DNA of 10,244 bases from a virus (taxonomy: Duplodnaviria; Heunggongvirae; Uroviricota; Caudoviricetes). The notes under the pieces are model-generated. The model made no database searches and was not told the origin of the DNA. It saw nothing but the letters and a program-made list of their open reading frames with translations. Every line of letters begins with the position of its first letter. Position 1 is the first letter of the stretch. The translations under genes were made by a program, and so were the position numbers. The stretch lies in the IMG/VR virus record IMGVR_UViG_3300012281_000038; one strand, given 5' to 3'. Below are positions 1,015-10,244 of this stretch, one piece after another.

Positions 1015-3727
1015 TCATTCTTCAGATGAGTTGTAATCTCCTGGCTGGTAATTGAGTACATAAACGTTTATTTGTCGTCCCTGAATACGTGGTGATTTTC
1101 TTTGGTATCCACGACCGCTGTTTGGTGGGGTTAGCATCCCGGCTTTTTTCAACACTTCAGCAAACTGTTTTGCGTTGAAACCACATGCGATCTCCTTTTC
1201 AAATGTGGCCGGGAATGTGTAGAAAATCATTGGGCTTTCGTCATGTTCTCCACGCTGACGGTATCCGGCTAAATCTTTGATGGGCAAATCTGCCGGGCTG
1301 TATGGAAATGGTGCAAAACGGCTAAGCCCATAGGCATTAAGAAATGCCTCCGTTTGTTCAATAATCTGCTGATGTTCTTTGTTACCTGTGCCGAACTCGC
1401 GCAACCATGCGTTATAGCTGTGCTGTATCGCATCACGGCATGTCTGAGCATCCCAGCCTGTTACAACCTCGCCTAACAGCAATGCGGCCTCCAGAATGGC
1501 AAATCGCGCGGCTACACGGTGAACCTGCTCACCATAATCGGATGGGATCAGACTTCTCCATCTGCTTTCGCAGTCACGAACAGTTTTAATTGCCTGTTGC
1601 TGGTGGTCTGCCAGCCATTTAATCCACTCACGCCCGGCTGCGCCGTGGTGATGCTGGTAAGCGTCTTTCAGTGCGTCTGCGTGCTGTTTTCCGTTCTGGT
1701 AATCGTGAAAGCGTACTGCTTTACTCAACGGAATATTCAGCAGTCGCACCAGTTGCCCGGCTTTGGTTTTTCGCCCGGAAGTAGCGATAAATGTTTCTAA
1801 ATCCATTTCTCCGGTGCTGATTGCCACTGTACGCCAGCGTTTTAGATCCCGGTTTCCACCATCTTTAGCGCCTTGCAGTTTCCCTACGCCGTTAAATAAC
1901 GCATAGGCAGACTGTGAAACACTGACAGGATCAGCGCCCTGACCAACTTCATCAAGCGGCATTAGTCCGTCATTGTGGGCGGCGGCTTCATTTGCCAGCC
2001 CCAGCGCGGTTCCGTACCACGTCAGCCGCAGTAAATCAGGGTTGCCGTATAAGCTGCTCGCCACGTTTGCCGTGGTGGTCTTACCTGCGCTCGACTGCTC
2101 ATAGAAATGAATGCCGAACCCGTCAGCGCCCACCAGCCTAATCAATGGCGCTGCCAGTGCTGCGCCGATCCCGGTCATCATTGAATAGTTACCAAAGGCC
2201 AGACGCGCCACGTTATCACGCCAGCTTTTCGCGCTCCCTGAGACGGTATATCCGGCTGCGGCTGAGCTTCTCCCGCTGAACAGCACAGGATTTTCAGGTG
2301 TTCCGATGATTTCCCCATCAGGCATGATGTACGCTCCGCATTGCCAGCCAGTGGCATGAGCAACACGCCACAATTCACGAGAGCCACTGCGTTGTAGCCA
2401 GTCTGCCAGTATTGCTCTGAGGCTGCTTTTGGTCGTGACATTTACCCCACCAGCTTTAAGTGTGCGCCATCCTTCACGTTCACCAATATCAGCCAGTGGA
2501 ATGGCAGCGGTTGTCGGCGTTTCAGAACCAAACGACAGCCAGCGAAGAATGAGATACTGGTCTTTATCGTCTCTGCCAGTACCGATAACGCTTAACGGAG
2601 AACATAACCAGCTTTCGTTATTGATGATTTCTCCACTCTGGCTGTCAGCTCTCGGAGATACCCAATAAATGCCATCCTCGCGGCTTTCTATTCTTGGTTT
2701 CAGTGGGTCGGTATCCATAACCTTAAAATCGCTTCCCTCAATGGTTTGTGGCTCCTGTTTCACGCCATTACCCTGTGGTTGGTACATTGACTTATTGAAC
2801 GCTTCTGTGGCGCATTTAATGCCGTGTTTTTGGTGGTAATCATTCCAGTCTGCTTTGTGATCTGTCGGGGGTAATGCCACCCATCCAGAAACAGATAAAG
2901 CTGCTTTTTCTGCTGCTATTCTCCCCGTGTTTTGTCTTCCTTCGCGGTGGTCGTTATCCGCAGCAATGATGATTTGTGCTGAAGGAAATTTATCCTGCAG
3001 TACCTGGGCGACATATAACAGGTTCCCGGCATCAATCGCCGCCACTGTCAGCGCCTCTGGACGCATTAAATGGGCAGATAATGCCGTTGCCAGCCCTTCT
3101 GCGATTAAGATGCTCTGTGTTGTTTCTGGTGNNNNNNNNNNCACCATGTGAGGTAATAGTCTGTGCTGCTGTTACTGCGCCGGATTTATCCACCAGCGCC
3201 AGCAACAGAGATCCATCGGGCAACACGGGGAATGTAAAATCACCTACCCCTTTCGCAACCAGATAATCAGATTTGCCGTTTACAGCCTTTCTGCGCATGT
3301 CATCAAACTGACGGGAAAACGTATCCCGTCTTTGTTGTTCGTCCTTCTCTTCCCTTTTCAGGCGCTCCTGTTCGCGTCGCTGGCGCTCGGTTTCCAGTTG
3401 TTCCCGTTTCTGGCTGGTGGCTTCTGGTGTTTCCGTTGTCCGGTAATCAATACCCAGAACATCAGCGGCAAGAAGCGCCGCCTCTGTTGTGTCGCAGTTA
3501 TTTACGCGTTTAATTAAATCCAGCCCATCACCAGCGCCGCACTGATTACAGATGAAGCTACCGCGCCCGTTGTCATCGAACCGGAATCGATCTTTGCCCC
3601 CACATGCAGGGCAGGGAGCATGACGGCGCGGAGAGTCAGGGACATTTATGTTCAGGCAGCCCAGCACATGAGGCCAGTTGTTTTCAGACGCACTGATAAC
3701 CTGACGGATAAGATCAATGTTTCGCAT
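1015..3727 (-). CDS. DNA primase-helicase: N-terminal zinc-ribbon, TOPRIM domain, C-terminal P-loop NTPase (D5/DUF5906-like); reading frame broken at the 10-N run 3132-3141
   Basis: Track ORFs 3032-3730 and 1015-3147 are two halves of one gene. The N-terminal half has CPACGG...CNQCG (zinc ribbon). The second half has the TOPRIM signature (IAEGLATALS ... IIIAADNDHREGRQ) and a Walker-A-like SSAGKTT. The likely start is ATG 3727-3725 (GTG at 3730 is the track start). The two halves are in different frames across the N run. Confidence 0.85.
3132..3141. other. run of 10 N (masked or unresolved bases) inside the primase gene
   Basis: Literal n characters. Flanking reading frames differ by one, so the true length is probably not 10, or the gene is frameshifted. 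Confidence 0.95.
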
Positions 3728-4085: not shown

Positions 4086-4346
4086 GAGAACCTCCCGCTA
4101 CAGTTGCGCCCATGTCATTAACCATGCTTTGCCATATCTCACGCCCGACGTCAGTCAATCCGTCCTTAGTGACGCAACGATCAAGAAGCTCTATCCCCAC
4201 GGTTTCCCACTGCGGGTAGAACACTTTCATGGCTGCCANNNNNNNNNNNNNNNNNNNNNNNNNNNNNNNNNNNNNNNNNNNNNNNNNNNNAGTGCCGACG
4301 CATACTTATTTGCCAGCGCATTCAGTCGGAAATTTTTAGTAATCAT
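4078..4346 (-). CDS. hypothetical small protein interrupted by a 52-N run (extent and frame uncertain)
   Basis: ATG 4346-4344 (MITKNFRLNALANKYASA...) with GGATGGAG upstream. Beyond the N run the open frame ...MKVFYPQWETVGIELLDRCVTKDGLTDVGREIWQSMVNDMGATVAGGSHA ends at TGA 4080-4078, overlapping the ATG of the 123-aa gene (ATGCGTGA). Frames on the two sides of the gap disagree if the N count is literal. Confidence 0.3.
4239..4290. other. run of 52 N (masked or unresolved bases)
   Basis: Literal n characters. Confidence 0.95.
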
Positions 4347-5432: not shown

Positions 5433-5623
5433 TTTTCACCCCCAAGAATTACCAGCTCTGCACGAGCATCGTTAACCAAAGATGAGCACGCTTTAATCGC
5501 ATCCACGACATCAGCAGCGTCCATTTCTTCAGCCGAAAGACTGACAGCAACCAAGACAGCCGCTGCTTGCTCGATTAATTGAAGTGCGGACGTAAGTCGA
5601 GGGGCATTAATTGAGTTATTCAT
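5429..5623 (-). CDS. hypothetical small protein (64 aa, MNNSINAPRLTSALQLIEQ...)
   Basis: Preferred start ATG 5623-5621 preceded by GGGGG, overlapping the stop of the upstream ORF (ATGAATAA). The longer track ORF starting at 5680 overlaps the upstream frame. Confidence 0.5.
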   Translation of the reverse strand: MNNSINAPRLTSALQLIEQAAAVLVAVSLSAEEMDAADVVDAIKACSSLVNDARAELVILGGEK

Positions 5624-6683
5624 TGGTTGCCCCCGTTTTTCCTGGCATTTCGCCACCTTCCAGCAGGAAATGAACGTCACGAACGGCGAGATCCAATATC
5701 GCGAGTAACGCCTTCAGTTTTTCGTCTCGTGAGGGAGAGTTGCTCACCAGAATGTCATTAATCACTTCTGTCAGTGTGATGATCTGGCTTGTGCGTTCGA
5801 GGGGATCCATATGCACATCGTAGGTTTTAATCATGTGCCACCTCCATGCGGATACGACCAGCAAAAAAGCAGACGTGATCGCGCACCAGAGAACGGCGAG
5901 CATCGCGTTCAGACTCGGCAGCAATATGATGAATTTTGGCGGTAATTGTCGGGCAATCGCGGCGAACTGCGGCGATAATCCAGATAAATTGCGGTTTTTG
6001 GGTAGGGGTAGTAGCCAGCATGTGGCAGCCTCCTTGTACTGGGAATTCTTCCCACCACCGGAGCTGCGAAACTCGCTGGTGGTGGACTGAACAGAGTTCG
6101 CAGTACCGGCGTACAAGGAAACCGGCCAGCCTTTCGGCTGCCCTGTCCAGCCCACCATAATTTTGCAAGCGACGCGGATTATAACCACATCACTGAAAAA
6201 AGTGTGAGTCTGGCTAACGGCACAAAAAAAGACGCTCGGCGCGTCATGTGTCGCCTCGTACATTTCCGGGCTGCGAAACCCGGCACCCGTTTTATGAGGT
6301 GCCTTATAACCATAAACCGTGTTGCCGCATAACGACAAGCTCTTTTTTATGGACTCCGAAAACTCACTATTGGAAGCACCAGATGCACAATACATCGCGC
6401 TCATTTCGTTAACGTCGCGCGTGTGGACGAAGGTTTTTGTGGAGCCACTACGCGAGCAGAGAAAGCCATCTACGACCAGAAATTCTCTGGCGCAGCCGCT
6501 GACCCTCTCAACGATAACACCATCGACCGTAATTTCTGACATAGTTAAGGCATCCGCTCCTACCACCAGCAAATGATAAACTTTGCTTGCATCTGCTGTA
6601 TTAATGCCTGATTTTGCTGTCATATTGCTGGATTTTTGCCACATACCAGCCAGTGAAAATATCTTCTTCTGGGCGGTTAGCAT
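5616..6683 (-). CDS. 355-aa open frame of doubtful integrity: good start signals, but the middle contains hairpins and T-runs and may be non-coding or a structured RNA; an internal start would give a 72-aa C-terminal product (5616-5834)
   Basis: ATG 6683-6681 with GGAGG seven nt upstream and the same ATGNNNTAA overlap with the preceding gene as elsewhere in the operon. The frame stays open for 355 codons. The central part is low-complexity and carries a terminator-like hairpin with T-run (6224-6245) and two hairpins sharing the 10-mer GCTGCGAAAC. An internal GGAGG + ATG (5834-5832) precedes a well-formed C-terminal segment MIKTYDVHMDPLERTSQ... Confidence 0.35.
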   Translation of the reverse strand: MLTAQKKIFSLAGMWQKSSNMTAKSGINTADASKVYHLLVVGADALTMSEITVDGVIVERVSGCAREFLVVDGFLCSRSGSTKTFVHTRDVNEMSAMYCASGASNSEFSESIKKSLSLCGNTVYGYKAPHKTGAGFRSPEMYEATHDAPSVFFCAVSQTHTFFSDVVIIRVACKIMVGWTGQPKGWPVSLYAGTANSVQSTTSEFRSSGGGKNSQYKEAATCWLLPLPKNRNLSGLSPQFAAIARQLPPKFIILLPSLNAMLAVLWCAITSAFLLVVSAWRWHMIKTYDVHMDPLERTSQIITLTEVINDILVSNSPSRDEKLKALLAILDLAVRDVHFLLEGGEMPGKTGATNE

Positions 6684-6859: not shown

Positions 6860-7700
6860 GGACCGCCTCCAGACGCTTAGCGAGCCAGCGTTGCGACAGG
6901 CGGGTGAGTTCTCCTTTGCGCTGCTCATATTCCATGCCCATATCAATTAACGTGATATTGGTGCTTTCGAGATATGAGAGGTGCTCAAGCTGTTCTGCGT
7001 TCATATGGTCGCGAGGTTCGCCAGAATAGCCATTTATCCGCGCCCACTGCTTAGCAGTTAGCCCACCAAGAACGATACGAGAAATCATATTGCTCTCGTT
7101 TGTGTAGTGGTGTTGCTGCGTCGTTTTACCCATCTCGGCACGGGCCATATTCAGCGCATCGCACATTGGCTTAAAGTTGTTTGCGGCACTGATACGGGCT
7201 TTTAGCTGGCGACGATAGCGGGCGGCGATTTCAGGCACGCTACGCTGTAATTCTTCCTCGCACTGGATGAAATAACGGCGGATAGCGCGACCCTGATCAT
7301 TGCGTTCGATCATTGCCAGTTCTTTCGCCATTCCGACACTTAACAGATAGTCTTTGCCGGGTCTGCCAGACTGCTTAATCTTGCTGTAAGCCGCGCCATT
7401 CGGGCTTTTCCCCAAATTTGGGGAAATTGTTTTATGGACTGAGTAATCGCGCCCAATGGTGAAGTCATACTCAGAGATGCGNNNNNNNNNNNNNNNNNNN
7501 NNNNNNNNNNNNNAGAAGTCTTTTCCCACGCCCAACGCTTTGTGTAACGCTTTTGCGCTAACAATATTGGTTTCACGCCCACCGATATGACCAGGAATAA
7601 CCGGGACAATTGCGGCAAATTCATTACCGTTAATTGTGCCCAGAAAGGCGTTCGGATGAGGGGCGGCCTCAGAAATTAATCTGCTTTTTTCGATGTTCAT
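6852..7700 (-). CDS. phage antirepressor-like protein (AntA N-terminal domain + KilA-C/ANT C-terminal domain)
   Basis: ATG 7700-7698 with GGAGA upstream. Motifs VSAKALHKALGVGKDF ... GRPGKDYLLSVGMAKELAMIERNDQGRAIRRYFIQCEEEL match the AntA/KilAC antirepressor pattern. A 32-N run (7482-7513) falls inside without disturbing the frame. Confidence 0.75.
   Translation of the reverse strand: MNIEKSRLISEAAPHPNAFLGTINGNEFAAIVPVIPGHIGGRETNIVSAKALHKALGVGKDFXXXXXXXXXXXRISEYDFTIGRDYSVHKTISPNLGKSPNGAAYSKIKQSGRPGKDYLLSVGMAKELAMIERNDQGRAIRRYFIQCEEELQRSVPEIAARYRRQLKARISAANNFKPMCDALNMARAEMGKTTQQHHYTNESNMISRIVLGGLTAKQWARINGYSGEPRDHMNAEQLEHLSYLESTNITLIDMGMEYEQRKGELTRLSQRWLAKRLEAVHV
7482..7513. other. run of 32 N (masked or unresolved bases) inside the antirepressor gene
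   Basis: Literal n characters. Confidence 0.95.
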
Positions 7701-7712
7701 TTTCAGTCTCCG

Positions 7713-8144
7713 TTAGGCGGCGTTAAACGCGTCCGGGTAGAGTTTCAGAATGTCGGCAATTTCCTGCTGAGAAAGTCCGTTGTGATCATTTATGTTCGCA
7801 AGATGGTTAACATGAGTGATCACTTTCAGAACATCACCACGGCAGGAGAAACGGTAGCGAAGGTGTGCTCCGATACCATCAGGATTCTTTTCGTCGATAC
7901 GCTCCAGAGTGATCCCAAGCTGGCGTTCTAACTCTGTTGCATAGTTACGACCAGAAGACAGACGGCAGTAGCGAAGAATGTCGTTTTCTGTCCATCCCTC
8001 TATACCAGTACGCAGCATATAGACTCGGGCGCGATGCTTTTTCGGTGTGCGCTTTGGTGCTTGAAGGGATTTTGTCAGGGGCGTAACATCAGATACGCGA
8101 ATATCTGAATTAGCCGCCTGTAATGGGCGGTTTTTCTTTTCCAT
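7713..8144 (-). CDS. hypothetical protein (143 aa), basic N-terminus, possible C-terminal helix-turn-helix
   Basis: ATG 8144-8142 overlaps the alpA-like stop (TGATG). Stop TAA 7715-7713. The C-terminal GLSQQEIADILKL resembles an HTH recognition segment. No family confidently recognised. Confidence 0.55.
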   Translation of the reverse strand: MEKKNRPLQAANSDIRVSDVTPLTKSLQAPKRTPKKHRARVYMLRTGIEGWTENDILRYCRLSSGRNYATELERQLGITLERIDEKNPDGIGAHLRYRFSCRGDVLKVITHVNHLANINDHNGLSQQEIADILKLYPDAFNAA

Positions 8145-8347
8145 CAGGCCACCTTCCCGCGGCGTTCTGCCAGCCAGTTGTGAATCTCAACCGCATCAAA
8201 CGCAGTTATTTTTTCTCCCAGCTTTACCGGACGTGGTAGTGAACCGTTTCTTACTTTACGGTCGATGGTGGATACACTAACGCCCAGCAATTCAGCCAAG
8301 CGGAAGCGTCTGATATAGCCTTTTGTAGGAATAGTGTCAGTGTTCAT
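8144..8347 (-). CDS. alpA: AlpA-family phage transcriptional regulator / excisionase-like HTH protein (67 aa)
   Basis: Translation MNTDTIPTKGYIRRFRLAELLGVSVSTIDRKVRNGSLPRPVKLGEKITAFDAVEIHNWLAERRG fits the AlpA (Phage_AlpA) HTH pattern. ATG 8347-8345. Position between integrase and replication genes is typical. Confidence 0.8.
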   Translation of the reverse strand: MNTDTIPTKGYIRRFRLAELLGVSVSTIDRKVRNGSLPRPVKLGEKITAFDAVEIHNWLAERRGKVA

Positions 8348-8420
8348 GCTTCCCGTAACCTCTTAACGATAGTTGTTGCTTCGTTACGAGAAAACTAACT
8401 GTATAGATATACAATGAAAA

Positions 8421-8442
8421 GGTACTGTATTTTTGCAGTACC
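8421..8442 (-). terminator. hairpin GGTACTG-N8-CAGTACC followed by TTTTCATT on the minus strand; possible terminator of the int-cargo transcript, or an operator
   Basis: Perfect 7-bp inverted repeat (8421-8427 / 8436-8442) starting 12 nt after the stop of the 316-aa gene, with a T-rich tail on the minus strand. Confidence 0.4.
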
Positions 8443-8453
8443 TCTATAGTAAG

Positions 8454-9404
8454 TTAACTATCTACTTTGCCATTTGCCGCAGCTCGTAGATGTTTAAGAA
8501 TTACATCTTCATTAGTTATCATAAGTGGTGGAACTTCGCCTAAATGCCGAACAAGGCAGTCACGCCACTTTTCCGGGCTTATTTCTTTCCTTTCTCCTCT
8601 GCATTCATCTGGATACTTACTAAGTATATAAATTGCAGATTTTAATAGTTTCTCCCTATTGACAGCGTGTCGTTCGGCACGTTTATTGACTTTCAACGTG
8701 TTTATATCATTGGATAACTTGTTTGCAGAAGGCTTGTGCGTGGGTTTATCATAAATATATCTTCCTCCATTGATAAGGAGATTGAATTCATAATCAGTTA
8801 TATACATTTTGTTCCGGCTTACTTCATACCATCCGTCAATATAAAAAGTTCCGATTTCATAATCCGGCGATTTATAAAAATCGTCACATCTTGGCGGCGT
8901 CAATTCGCATACTGAAATCTCCCAATCATCCCATTCTGATAGCTCTCGCTCATCGTTATCTATGAATGCAGGAGGAATTGCTAATAGACCGCACCATCTT
9001 TCTATCTCTCTTTTATCCTTTCCGACATTGTATCGCTCTATAACTGAAAAATGCTCTGATTTGTATGAAAATCTAATAAAATACAGGTGGTTATCGTCAT
9101 TTTTGTCATCAAGGGATGATAATCCATATGATTCAGGATCATCTATATTATCGCTCAGTCCAAGAAGGTAGTTCTCATTTGCCACTTTCTCATCTATATC
9201 GAAAAAGCTATCTGTTTCAACTTTAAGTAATTCTGGCTCGGCATTTTCATCTTTTGGGTAATGGTAAAACAATTCAATAGGTGGAATCTTTGTGCATATT
9301 TCTAAAACCCCAATTGCTGCATAGTGTATTAAATCGGATACTTCACATCCGGCCAGTTTGGCTGCTTTATCCAAAGAATAATATTTATGCGCAGGTAATT
9401 TCAT
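8454..9404 (-). CDS. hypothetical protein (316 aa), low-GC cargo gene; possible N-terminal HTH, acidic central region; function unknown
   Basis: ATG 9404-9402 with strong RBS GGAGGAGAG seven nt upstream, 18 nt after the integrase stop. GC is about 33-38% in sampled stretches against about 50-53% for neighbouring genes. The N-terminal YSLDKAAKLAGCEVSDLIHYAAIGVL resembles an excisionase/MerR-type HTH. No catalytic motif recognised. Confidence 0.7.
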   Translation of the reverse strand: MKLPAHKYYSLDKAAKLAGCEVSDLIHYAAIGVLEICTKIPPIELFYHYPKDENAEPELLKVETDSFFDIDEKVANENYLLGLSDNIDDPESYGLSSLDDKNDDNHLYFIRFSYKSEHFSVIERYNVGKDKREIERWCGLLAIPPAFIDNDERELSEWDDWEISVCELTPPRCDDFYKSPDYEIGTFYIDGWYEVSRNKMYITDYEFNLLINGGRYIYDKPTHKPSANKLSNDINTLKVNKRAERHAVNREKLLKSAIYILSKYPDECRGERKEISPEKWRDCLVRHLGEVPPLMITNEDVILKHLRAAANGKVDS

Positions 9405-9422
9405 TATGAATCTCTCCTCCCA

Positions 9423-10244
9423 TCATGCTCTAATTGGTGTCACGTTGTAGTCTTTTCCGCTTTCCAGTGCCACCAGCAGATCAGCCCACTGTGCCAGTGC
9501 TGCTTTACGCTCATCAAAATACTGATGGCGGTTATAAATCCCCTCTATGCCCTTAATGCGATGATTGAGGCATCGTTCCGCCACGACAGGATCAACACCC
9601 AACGCTGCTAAATGAGTACGTGCGGTGCGTCGGAAGTCGTGAATCGTGAAATTAGGCACATCCGGCATTTCGGCGCGAACCTTAGCCAGTGCTACGGGTA
9701 AAGTGCTTTCCTGAATATGTGGGATCATTCTGTTTTGCATTTTCCTGGCTGGAAGCACCCATGCGCTATTACATGAAAAGGTGTGAAGCTCTCTCAACCA
9801 TTCAACGGCTGGGGAAGGTAGAGGTATATCAATAGGGTCTCCGTTTTTGCTGCGTTCTTCCGGCAAATGCCATACCGCACCATCTAAATCAAACTCTTCC
9901 CATCGTGCGGCGCATAACTCCATCTTACGAACGCATAGTGCCAGCAATAGCTTAAATGTCAGTTCGTTCTGGCGGCTGAATCCTTTTGCGGTGCGCATAG
10001 CCTCGAATAGCCTGATAAGCTCATCGCGAGTTAGCCAACGGTCGCGGGAAACCTCTTTACCACCAGCATCAGATACTTCAAACGCTGAACAAGGGTTTAT
10101 CTCCAGAGCGTGGCGTTTTATCCCATAGTCAAAGATACGGCGTGTCCAGCGTAATACATCTGTTGCTATCGTTGGTGCTCCTCGGTCAACGATACCTTTC
10201 AACATGTCGTCAATGTGGCGTGGCTTAACGTCCTCTACCTTCAT
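9423..10244 (-). CDS. int: tyrosine recombinase / phage integrase, C-terminal catalytic portion (N-terminus lies beyond the right edge)
   Basis: Catalytic-domain motifs: R in LCVRKMELCAARWEE, HDFRRTARTHLAALG (H-x-x-R), NHRIKGIEGIYNRHQY (catalytic Tyr region). Stop TGA 9425-9423. The ATG at the window edge is probably internal. Confidence 0.9.
   Translation of the reverse strand: MKVEDVKPRHIDDMLKGIVDRGAPTIATDVLRWTRRIFDYGIKRHALEINPCSAFEVSDAGGKEVSRDRWLTRDELIRLFEAMRTAKGFSRQNELTFKLLLALCVRKMELCAARWEEFDLDGAVWHLPEERSKNGDPIDIPLPSPAVEWLRELHTFSCNSAWVLPARKMQNRMIPHIQESTLPVALAKVRAEMPDVPNFTIHDFRRTARTHLAALGVDPVVAERCLNHRIKGIEGIYNRHQYFDERKAALAQWADLLVALESGKDYNVTPIRA

Follow-up and report, generated by a model that had tools for sequence, protein, structure and literature searches.

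Organization of the X316 locus

The DNA analysed here, called the window below, is the whole 10,244-nt stretch of the IMG/VR virus record IMGVR_UViG_3300012281_000038. Close to one of its ends, the 3′ part of an integrase gene (int) is followed by a gene for a 316-aa protein, X316, and then by an alpA-type gene. The features of this region, and two RNAs located farther along, are as follows:

9423-10244, minus strand: 3′ part of the gene for a tyrosine integrase (C-terminal 273 aa); the gene runs past the window end
9405-9422, minus strand: int-X316 spacer, TGGGAGGAGAGATTCATA, 18 nt, containing the ribosome-binding site GGGAGGAGAG at 9412-9421
8454-9404, minus strand: X316 ORF, ATG start, TAA stop, 316 aa
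8418-8445, minus strand: terminator-like hairpin 3′ of the X316 stop, 10-bp stem, then UUUUCAUU (from folding)
8398-8415, minus strand: second palindrome, TGTATA-TC-TATACA, within the cassette-specific 3′ flank
8352-8359 and 8383-8390, minus strand: alpA leader inverted repeat, CTCGTAAC/GTTACGGG, flanking the alpA Shine-Dalgarno (from comparison of relatives)
8144-8347, minus strand: alpA-like HTH regulator, 67 aa, next gene downstream of X316 (AlpA family annotation in relatives)
6225-6302, minus strand: isrK RNA (Rfam, 69 bits), inside an ash-family ORF (5616-6683)
6075-6162, minus strand: C4 antisense RNA (Rfam, 81 bits), inside the same ash-family ORF

A previous sequence-only reading of the window had described a 316-aa ORF with a strong ribosome-binding site 18 nt after the integrase stop, a hairpin of its own behind it and a GC content far below that of the rest, and each of these points was confirmed. 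The int stop codon (TGA) is located at 9425-9423 and X316 begins after the 18-nt spacer. Incomplete in the window, int is complete in locus L001, where it encodes 417 aa, is annotated as a tyrosine-type recombinase/integrase and adjoins yicC. No minus-strand promoter-like site was detected by a promoter scan upstream of the X316 ORF and, since the spacer is too short for a promoter or a terminator, we infer that X316 is co-transcribed with int. X316 has a GC content of 36.9% (GC3 29.7%), whereas int and alpA reach 49.4% and 49.5%, respectively, and the window as a whole has 47.9%.

Folding of the 66-nt hairpin region gave -17.5 kcal/mol (z = -4.1), and none of 200 shuffled sequences folded equally well. 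The hairpin is not listed by a simple terminator scan; its stem is kept, with compensatory differences, in relatives having the same C-terminal domain. The second palindrome may possibly be an operator or a promoter element.

The host element

The X316 region (window 8348-9422) shows 99.8-99.9% DNA identity to three complete Escherichia coli chromosomes and 80-95% to 38 more. Strains P4/FP4 and STIN_95 are examples at the 99.8-99.9% level. In the matching chromosomes, the element is always found in an island adjoining yicC. Genes succeed each other in the order int, X316, alpA-type HTH gene, a gene for a 143-aa protein (orf143), antA/antB, DUF4222, ash or an Icd-like gene and small ORFs; farther along lies a TOPRIM/DUF927 primase, followed by genes for P22-type ejection proteins. 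The int, alpA and primase genes are co-oriented, the core carries no structural or lysis module and a P4-type immunity RNA, an optional trait, is present. The element also matches the four-zone layout of Gram-negative PICIs (PMC10111431). On these grounds of gene content and order, it is a Gram-negative PICI-type phage satellite of E. coli integrated beside yicC, which agrees with the sequence-only reading, where variable loci of P4-like satellites and PICIs had been invoked. Judged by their Rfam matches, C4 and isrK are P4-type CI/seqA immunity RNAs in a PICI-organized satellite.

In its organization, the element also resembles EcCIMP1, which has a P22-like phage as helper (PMC11773190). Genes for a P22-type ‘DNA ejection protein’ together with DUF2824 genes were observed downstream of the primase at 1135-5793 of L001 and 670-4241 of L002. 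The presence of such downstream P22-type genes, as in EcCIMP1, suggests a P22-like/Kapi1-like helper.

The two sides of the int-alpA region carry repeats. In the alpA leader, 87% of the helix cells are paired across 14 relatives, with compensatory changes in three of the eight pairs; when the helix was scored explicitly, its covariation score was equalled by 7 of 500 shuffles. RNAalifold predicted no structure for this leader, the alignment of which includes three divergent rows. The repeat could be a leader hairpin that controls translation of alpA, or an operator. On the att side, four ATGTACA(C/T) repeats are located upstream of int at 16330-16420 of L001, outside the window and between int and yicC; they are probably arm-type integrase sites. 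No att direct repeats of 12 nt or more were found in the L001 and L002 DNA examined.

At the window's opposite end, four perfect tandem copies of TGAACCAAC occupy 954-989, just 3′ of the minus-strand primase gene at 1015-3147. A nearby 11-nt repeat, TGTTGGTTCAG (1.9 copies at 890-910), includes the inverse complement of the TGAACCAAC repeat core. Both sets follow the primase gene directly on its 3′ side and are probably replication-origin iterons. The window also contains N-masked stretches at 7482-7513 and X runs in the ORFs around 3140 and 4230-4290. These stretches, which look like sequence masking rather than biology, break the antA/antB-like gene, one further ORF and the primase region.

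Architecture of the X316 protein

Alignment of the family and an AlphaFold model of X316 (pLDDT 77.8, pTM 0.61) divide the protein into the following regions:

9279-9392, minus strand: aa 5-42, putative N-terminal AlpA/Xis/MerR-like winged helix-turn-helix
8760-9278, minus strand: aa 43-215, hypervariable acidic beta-rich middle (alignment and model)
8691-8759, minus strand: aa 216-238, low-confidence linker (pLDDT <50 at residues 219-238)
8457-8690, minus strand: aa 239-316, conserved basic helical C-terminal domain (alignment and model)

In the family alignment, the N-terminal 40 residues are moderately conserved, the middle is hypervariable and the last ~75 residues are almost invariant. 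Nineteen of the 21 invariant columns fall inside the C-terminal domain, which carries the motif AERHAxNRE...SKYPDECRG..KEISPEKW...ITNE.VILKHLR. The N-terminus is modelled as strand-helix-helix-strand with a pLDDT of 92-95 and appears to resemble the winged helices of excisionase, AlpA and MerR. The middle contains predicted strands at 109-203, the C-terminal domain is helical and disorder is predicted at 89-102 and 219-238. The HTH-like domain and the long acidic region (residues 46-215, with 40 D/E versus 17 K/R and a pI of 4.0-4.6) had both been anticipated by the sequence-only reading, the former as a possibility.

That reading had recognized no motif in the acidic region, and database comparisons of the protein were likewise negative. 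X316 gave no significant profile match in Pfam, NCBIfam, PHROGs or PADLOC. Sequence-profile searches of the PDB, whether started from the whole family or from the C-terminal domain, returned nothing better than E = 1, and Foldseek comparison of the model, middle region included, with the PDB and BFVD gave no significant match. Taken by itself, the C-terminal domain has a relative neither in the PDB nor in Pfam. The Pfam models of AlpA/Xis (PF05930, PF12728) matched neither X316 nor 101 relatives at E<=10, and a protein of 316 aa in three regions is unlike the small single-domain AlpA/Xis proteins (about 55-90 aa).

We also considered a split winged helix, in which the middle would be inserted in the wing and residues 198-212 would complete an Xis fold. 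This arrangement is speculative; none of ten insert-deleted chimeras matched the HTH_17 or AlpA Pfam models. X316 differs from the database protein P0001 at a single residue, 111 (about 9072-9074), which is Arg (YFIRFSY) in the window and Gly (YFIGFSY) in P0001.

A family placed directly after int across Enterobacterales

Homology search with X316 at E<=1e-24 gave 68 homologues, each of them labelled ‘hypothetical’; those that are named all come from Enterobacterales. In an exhaustive profile search, the family grew to 623 representatives of clusters at 50% identity, and the listed ones are mostly 260-360 aa long; remote members occur in Klebsiella, Enterobacter, Xenorhabdus, Providencia and Salmonella. 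When the homologue search was repeated with a diverse alignment, essentially the same proteins were recovered, with no Vibrio member, and a scan of species-representative genomes gave three loci only. No Pfam domain was found in 101 family members. The family has no model in Pfam, NCBIfam, PHROG or PADLOC and no mention of it was found in a literature search.

The genetic context proved constant. In 12 of 12 distinct contexts, representing nine genera and at least four integration sites, the order is int, family member, alpA or Bro, and primase, where the integrase was recognized by Arm-DNA-bind_3/Phage_int_M/Phage_integrase and the downstream gene as AlpA or Bro-N. At yicC, these include E. 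coli (three alleles), Salmonella, Rosenbergiella, Pectobacterium and Pantoea. Others are a satellite of Enterobacter lying within a prophage gene for head morphogenesis, a Kluyvera element beside mipA, a metagenomic element with Psu, and remote members of Klebsiella and Xenorhabdus at other sites. The gap between int and the family member is 11-126 nt in most loci and 330 nt in one.

No copy of the family was detected by tblastn in 50,697 phage records. Plasmid records gave no genuine match, the sole ‘plasmid’ match being a 4.9-Mb record. Because the family is found only after int in the contexts examined and is absent from phage and plasmid records, it does not behave as free-moving cargo, and the description of X316 as ‘single-gene cargo’ in the sequence-only reading is not supported. 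That reading had considered that a clearly annotated gene kept at this position in all related elements would speak against an accessory function. Both position and family are indeed conserved, although not universally, and no annotation exists. On the evidence of its distribution, the family is satellite-specific and integrase-linked and, judged by homology and synteny, X316 is one allele of an undescribed, Enterobacterales-wide, integrase-contiguous family of PICI-type satellites.

Cassette exchange between near-identical flanks

Among E. coli satellites integrated at yicC, int is 98-99% identical and orf143 98-100% identical at the protein level, whereas the gene in the slot between int and alpA differs. 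It was found to be X316, another allele of X316 (88.6% aa identity, dS 0.33), X321, X281, X293 or X216, in each case one gene, so that the alternatives number at least five. By HMM, X321 (E = 1e-55) and X281 (E = 2e-56) are members of the X316 superfamily, and X293 and X216 are not. X216 (L005, L006 and L021) is an unrelated 216-aa protein whose gene overlaps the int stop codon. It is accompanied by another allele of alpA, 69% identical, and by an AT-rich spacer of 470 nt. Similarity between alleles ends 13 nt before the int stop and returns either in the C-terminal region of X or 13 nt into alpA. In the thrW satellite of ABU83972, which has the same 143-aa gene, the slot is empty. The alleles are reassorted independently of the downstream Bro and replication modules, and their counts among 5,426 complete E. 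coli genomes are 41, 77, 38, 13 and 112, the last being that of X216.

Among 60 E. coli hits, sampled so as to be spread out, each slot contained a single unannotated gene of 216-321 aa, and no known or multi-gene defence system was observed. A P4-like promiscuous hotspot was ruled out on the basis of these contents. The int-alpA interval is variable, as the sequence-only reading had suspected, but mostly within one superfamily. The generic defence hotspot that it had envisaged finds no support in the sampled slots, in PADLOC or in the phage and plasmid records.

Low GC accompanies the slot as a whole. In 15 of 16 loci from nine genera, the slot gene is 4-14 points below its own integrase; the exception is the locus Ent_L010, where no difference is seen (int 39.0%, X 38.9%). 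A low GC shared by the family and the slot is therefore not evidence of one recent acquisition. The separate acquisition deduced by the sequence-only reading stands in so far as X316 is a swapped low-GC cassette between near-identical flanks, but not as a single recent event.

These exchanges raise the question of defence. X316 could be a one-gene system dedicated to defence against phages or satellites, or to their exclusion, and made constitutively with int in the resting satellite. Replacement of the cassette by at least five alternative genes, plus an empty state, between near-identical flanks is in line with this reading. So are the coexistence of alleles at intermediate frequencies in the 5,426 genomes, the persistently low GC, the own terminator and the modular build, variable plus conserved; satellites are moreover known to carry defence genes (PMC9122126, PMC10803314). 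Cassette dynamics, allele frequencies and the sensor-plus-module architecture suit defence and the integrase-coupled role proposed below equally well. What speaks against defence is the lack of a PADLOC match for X316, five other slot proteins and 101 family members. With PADLOC-DB v2, X316 gave only mad1 (E = 0.036, residues 6-35, not significant), the five other slot proteins gave nothing or PDC-S31 at E = 0.002, and the 101 family members had no match in common. In addition, no enzymatic or toxic domain is recognizable, the sampled slots never held a known or multi-gene system, and the family is seen only directly after int, whereas typical defence genes change contexts. We regard a defence role as the main alternative to the integrase-coupled role, less likely than not but with a real chance of being correct. 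The same holds for its more explicit form, in which the hypervariable region would sense a phage component, the C-terminal domain would be the effector or adaptor and diversity would result from an arms race.

Selection on the two parts of the protein

The middle region is about 20% identical between alleles whose integrases are 98% identical. Conversely, the C-terminal 69-76 residues remain 59-78% identical even in comparisons where identity falls to 26-29% for the integrases and to about 20% for the other parts of the protein, so that this domain is more conserved than int or AlpA. Between the two X316 alleles of E. coli, dN/dS is 0.18 overall, with a maximum of 0.31 in residues 46-105. In the C-terminal domain, dS is saturated and dN is 0.14-0.30. 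As synonymous sites are saturated while dN is low, conservation of this domain acts on the protein and not on overlapping DNA signals. From these rates and alignments, the pattern is that of a constrained module joined to a rapidly replaced one.

The many homologues, the dN/dS of 0.18 and the low C-terminal dN at saturated dS indicate that X316 is a genuine gene rather than a chance ORF, and its signals make it look expressed. They also bear on the view that X316 is a neutral or decaying hitch-hiker devoid of current function. Low GC and patchy presence could be read in that sense. Against it stand intact ORFs of similar length in at least nine genera, the dN/dS between alleles with strong purifying selection on the C-terminal domain, the strong ribosome-binding site and the conserved terminator. 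Given this selection pattern, neutrality is effectively refuted.

Constant and variable DNA around the slot

The att-side region with the ATGTACA(C/T) repeats is essentially identical in elements carrying X316, X321, X281, X216 and the X293 of L020, and divergent in the other X293 element, L019. The alpA-proximal leader is common to X316, X321 and X281 elements. The cassette-specific 3′ flank extends only about 60 nt past the stop codon and comprises the hairpin and the second palindrome. Since the att side and the alpA leader are constant across alleles, a variable winged helix acting at attL or at the alpA leader is unlikely. From these comparisons, its DNA target may instead be in the cassette-specific flank, at attR or on a helper phage.

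A target outside the att repeats and the leader would be expected if X316 were a piracy or interference factor directed against the helper phage, its allele tracking the helper type. Neither the att-side repeats nor the alpA-proximal leader co-varies with the X allele, which places any X-specific DNA target elsewhere. The N-terminus looks like one that binds DNA, and helper-repressing proteins of the Bro network and of the CapR type are known in satellites (PMC10111431). Such genes are, however, normally part of the induced alpA-primase-late operons and not co-transcribed with int, and the shuffling of X alleles shows no dependence on the Bro and replication modules. Interference thus conceived is improbable. 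We give as little credit to its detailed form, where the winged helix would bind helper DNA, or the variable domain a helper protein, to redirect expression or packaging.

A proposed role in the excision/induction switch

Strict linkage to int, an excisionase-like N-terminus, the lack of a defence signature and the absence of the family elsewhere make an integrase-coupled factor the best supported reading. By analogy with PICMI elements, we propose, with a probability of about 0.45, that X316 belongs to the satellite excision/induction switch as an integrase-coupled factor, for specificity or regulation, and is the counterpart of iolg/icg. A regulatory role, mentioned as an alternative in the sequence-only reading, is now better supported than defence or cargo.

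According to this proposal, X316, int and alpA would constitute the integration/induction module of PICI-type satellites. X316 would be transcribed from the int promoter, transcription stopping at its own terminator, so that the protein would be made in the quiescent satellite. The C-terminal domain would dock on a conserved partner, which may be AlpA, a surface that P4-type integrases have in common or a host factor of enterobacteria; the last would agree with the restriction of the family to Enterobacterales. The hypervariable N-terminal two thirds would set specificity, that is, which DNA or which helper-phage product is recognized. X316 would thereby gate excision or alpA-dependent induction.

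Several observations weigh against an excision factor. Arm repeats are identical and integrases 98-99% identical, yet the putative DNA-binding N-termini of the slot proteins are about 20% identical or unrelated. With int and arm repeats constant and N-termini divergent, a sequence-specific att-binding cofactor is hard to picture. The slot is empty in the thrW PICI of ABU83972. In EcCIMP1, which is helper-inducible via alpA, it holds only a small uvrB-annotated ORF of ~1/10 of the size of UvrB. An excisionase-like function is already supplied by AlpA and, as C4/isrK immunity RNAs are present, a protein repressor is not obviously required. Finally, a variable sensor joined to a conserved module is equally like defence proteins.

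A bolder version of the integrase-coupled role takes the family for the missing helper-sensing component of Gram-negative PICI-type satellites, constitutive and of a new fold. The hypervariable domain would bind a helper product and the C-terminal domain would couple this binding to excision or induction driven by Int/AlpA. It would be analogous in function to SaPI Stl but unrelated to it, and allele swaps would set which helpers can be exploited. We consider this version unlikely.

Implications

The integration zone of Gram-negative PICIs has been described as int plus alpA (PMC10111431). The present family adds a third component, widespread across Enterobacterales directly after int, unannotated and 280-350 aa long. 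It has no Pfam model and no match to a solved structure in the PDB, and it outpaces its flanks in divergence while keeping an almost invariant C-terminal domain. The PICI literature consulted offered no explanation of how a helper triggers alpA or excision, and the authors of the PICMI study list phage activation of the early regulon as an open question (PMC10803314). If control of excision or helper specificity is the true function, the family would offer a way to approach the host range of satellites and the spread of the genes they carry. If defence is the true function, X316 would represent a new single-gene system with a natural allelic series built in. In either case, the isogenic allele series at yicC makes the function of X316 directly testable.

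Comparison with known systems

The small excisionases and regulators AlpA, Vis, TorI and Xis may resemble X316 in the N-terminal fold type. Unlike them, X316 adds two domains, has no Phage_AlpA or HTH_17 match and is adjoined by a separate alpA. Excision of PIME1 elements requires a LuxR-family regulator encoded beside alpA (bioRxiv 10.64898/2026.01.12.698999), which is a second published precedent for the role proposed here. Like X316 in that role, it is an extra regulator encoded with alpA near int, but it differs from X316 in its fold family, in its divergent orientation and in depending on a conjugative rather than a phage helper.

The hotspot of P4-like satellites (gop-beta-cII position; PMC9122126) is also a variable low-GC locus beside int in an enterobacterial satellite. 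Between int and psu, P4 hotspots accommodate known systems that are numerous, unrelated and often multi-gene (PMC9122126), whereas the X316 slot contains one gene, mostly of one superfamily, between int and alpA.

Resemblance to Stl of the SaPIs lies in a size of about 250-300 aa, an N-terminal HTH followed by a divergent remainder, a position beside int and a highly allelic nature. In SaPIs, the Stl allele sets helper specificity. Stl is divergent from the operon that it represses, whereas X316 is co-oriented with int and alpA and has a terminator before alpA. No homology was found between the two, X316 is most conserved at its C-terminus and immunity is here RNA-based and of P4 type. The divergent orientation with shared operators typical of an Stl-like repressor is not seen, the alpA-proximal leader being the same across X alleles.

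The closest parallel is provided by the iolg/icg genes of PICMIs, which overlap or are contiguous with int, precede alpA, belong to 13 unrelated families and are sometimes absent; the integrases before them all target fis (PMC10803314). Deletion of iolg in PICMI115 abolished excision, packaging and transduction (PMC10803314), and was complemented only by int and iolg together (PMC10803314), so that a polar effect may contribute in this deletion. The PICMI defence hotspot is at the opposite end from iolg/icg (PMC10803314). As in PICMIs, a single gene, co-oriented and contiguous (X316 is 18 nt from int), separates int from alpA, and several unrelated slot families, or none, are found behind one integrase/att type. 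The overlap of X216 with the int stop resembles that of PICMI iolg. PICMIs belong to Vibrionaceae and reside at fis, whereas the X316 family is found in Enterobacterales at yicC and other sites. The likeness observed is one of layout, and the requirement for excision has been shown for PICMI115 only. The X316 family is, in this comparison, a new domain architecture within a known type of feature, the integrase-contiguous gene of int-alpA satellites.
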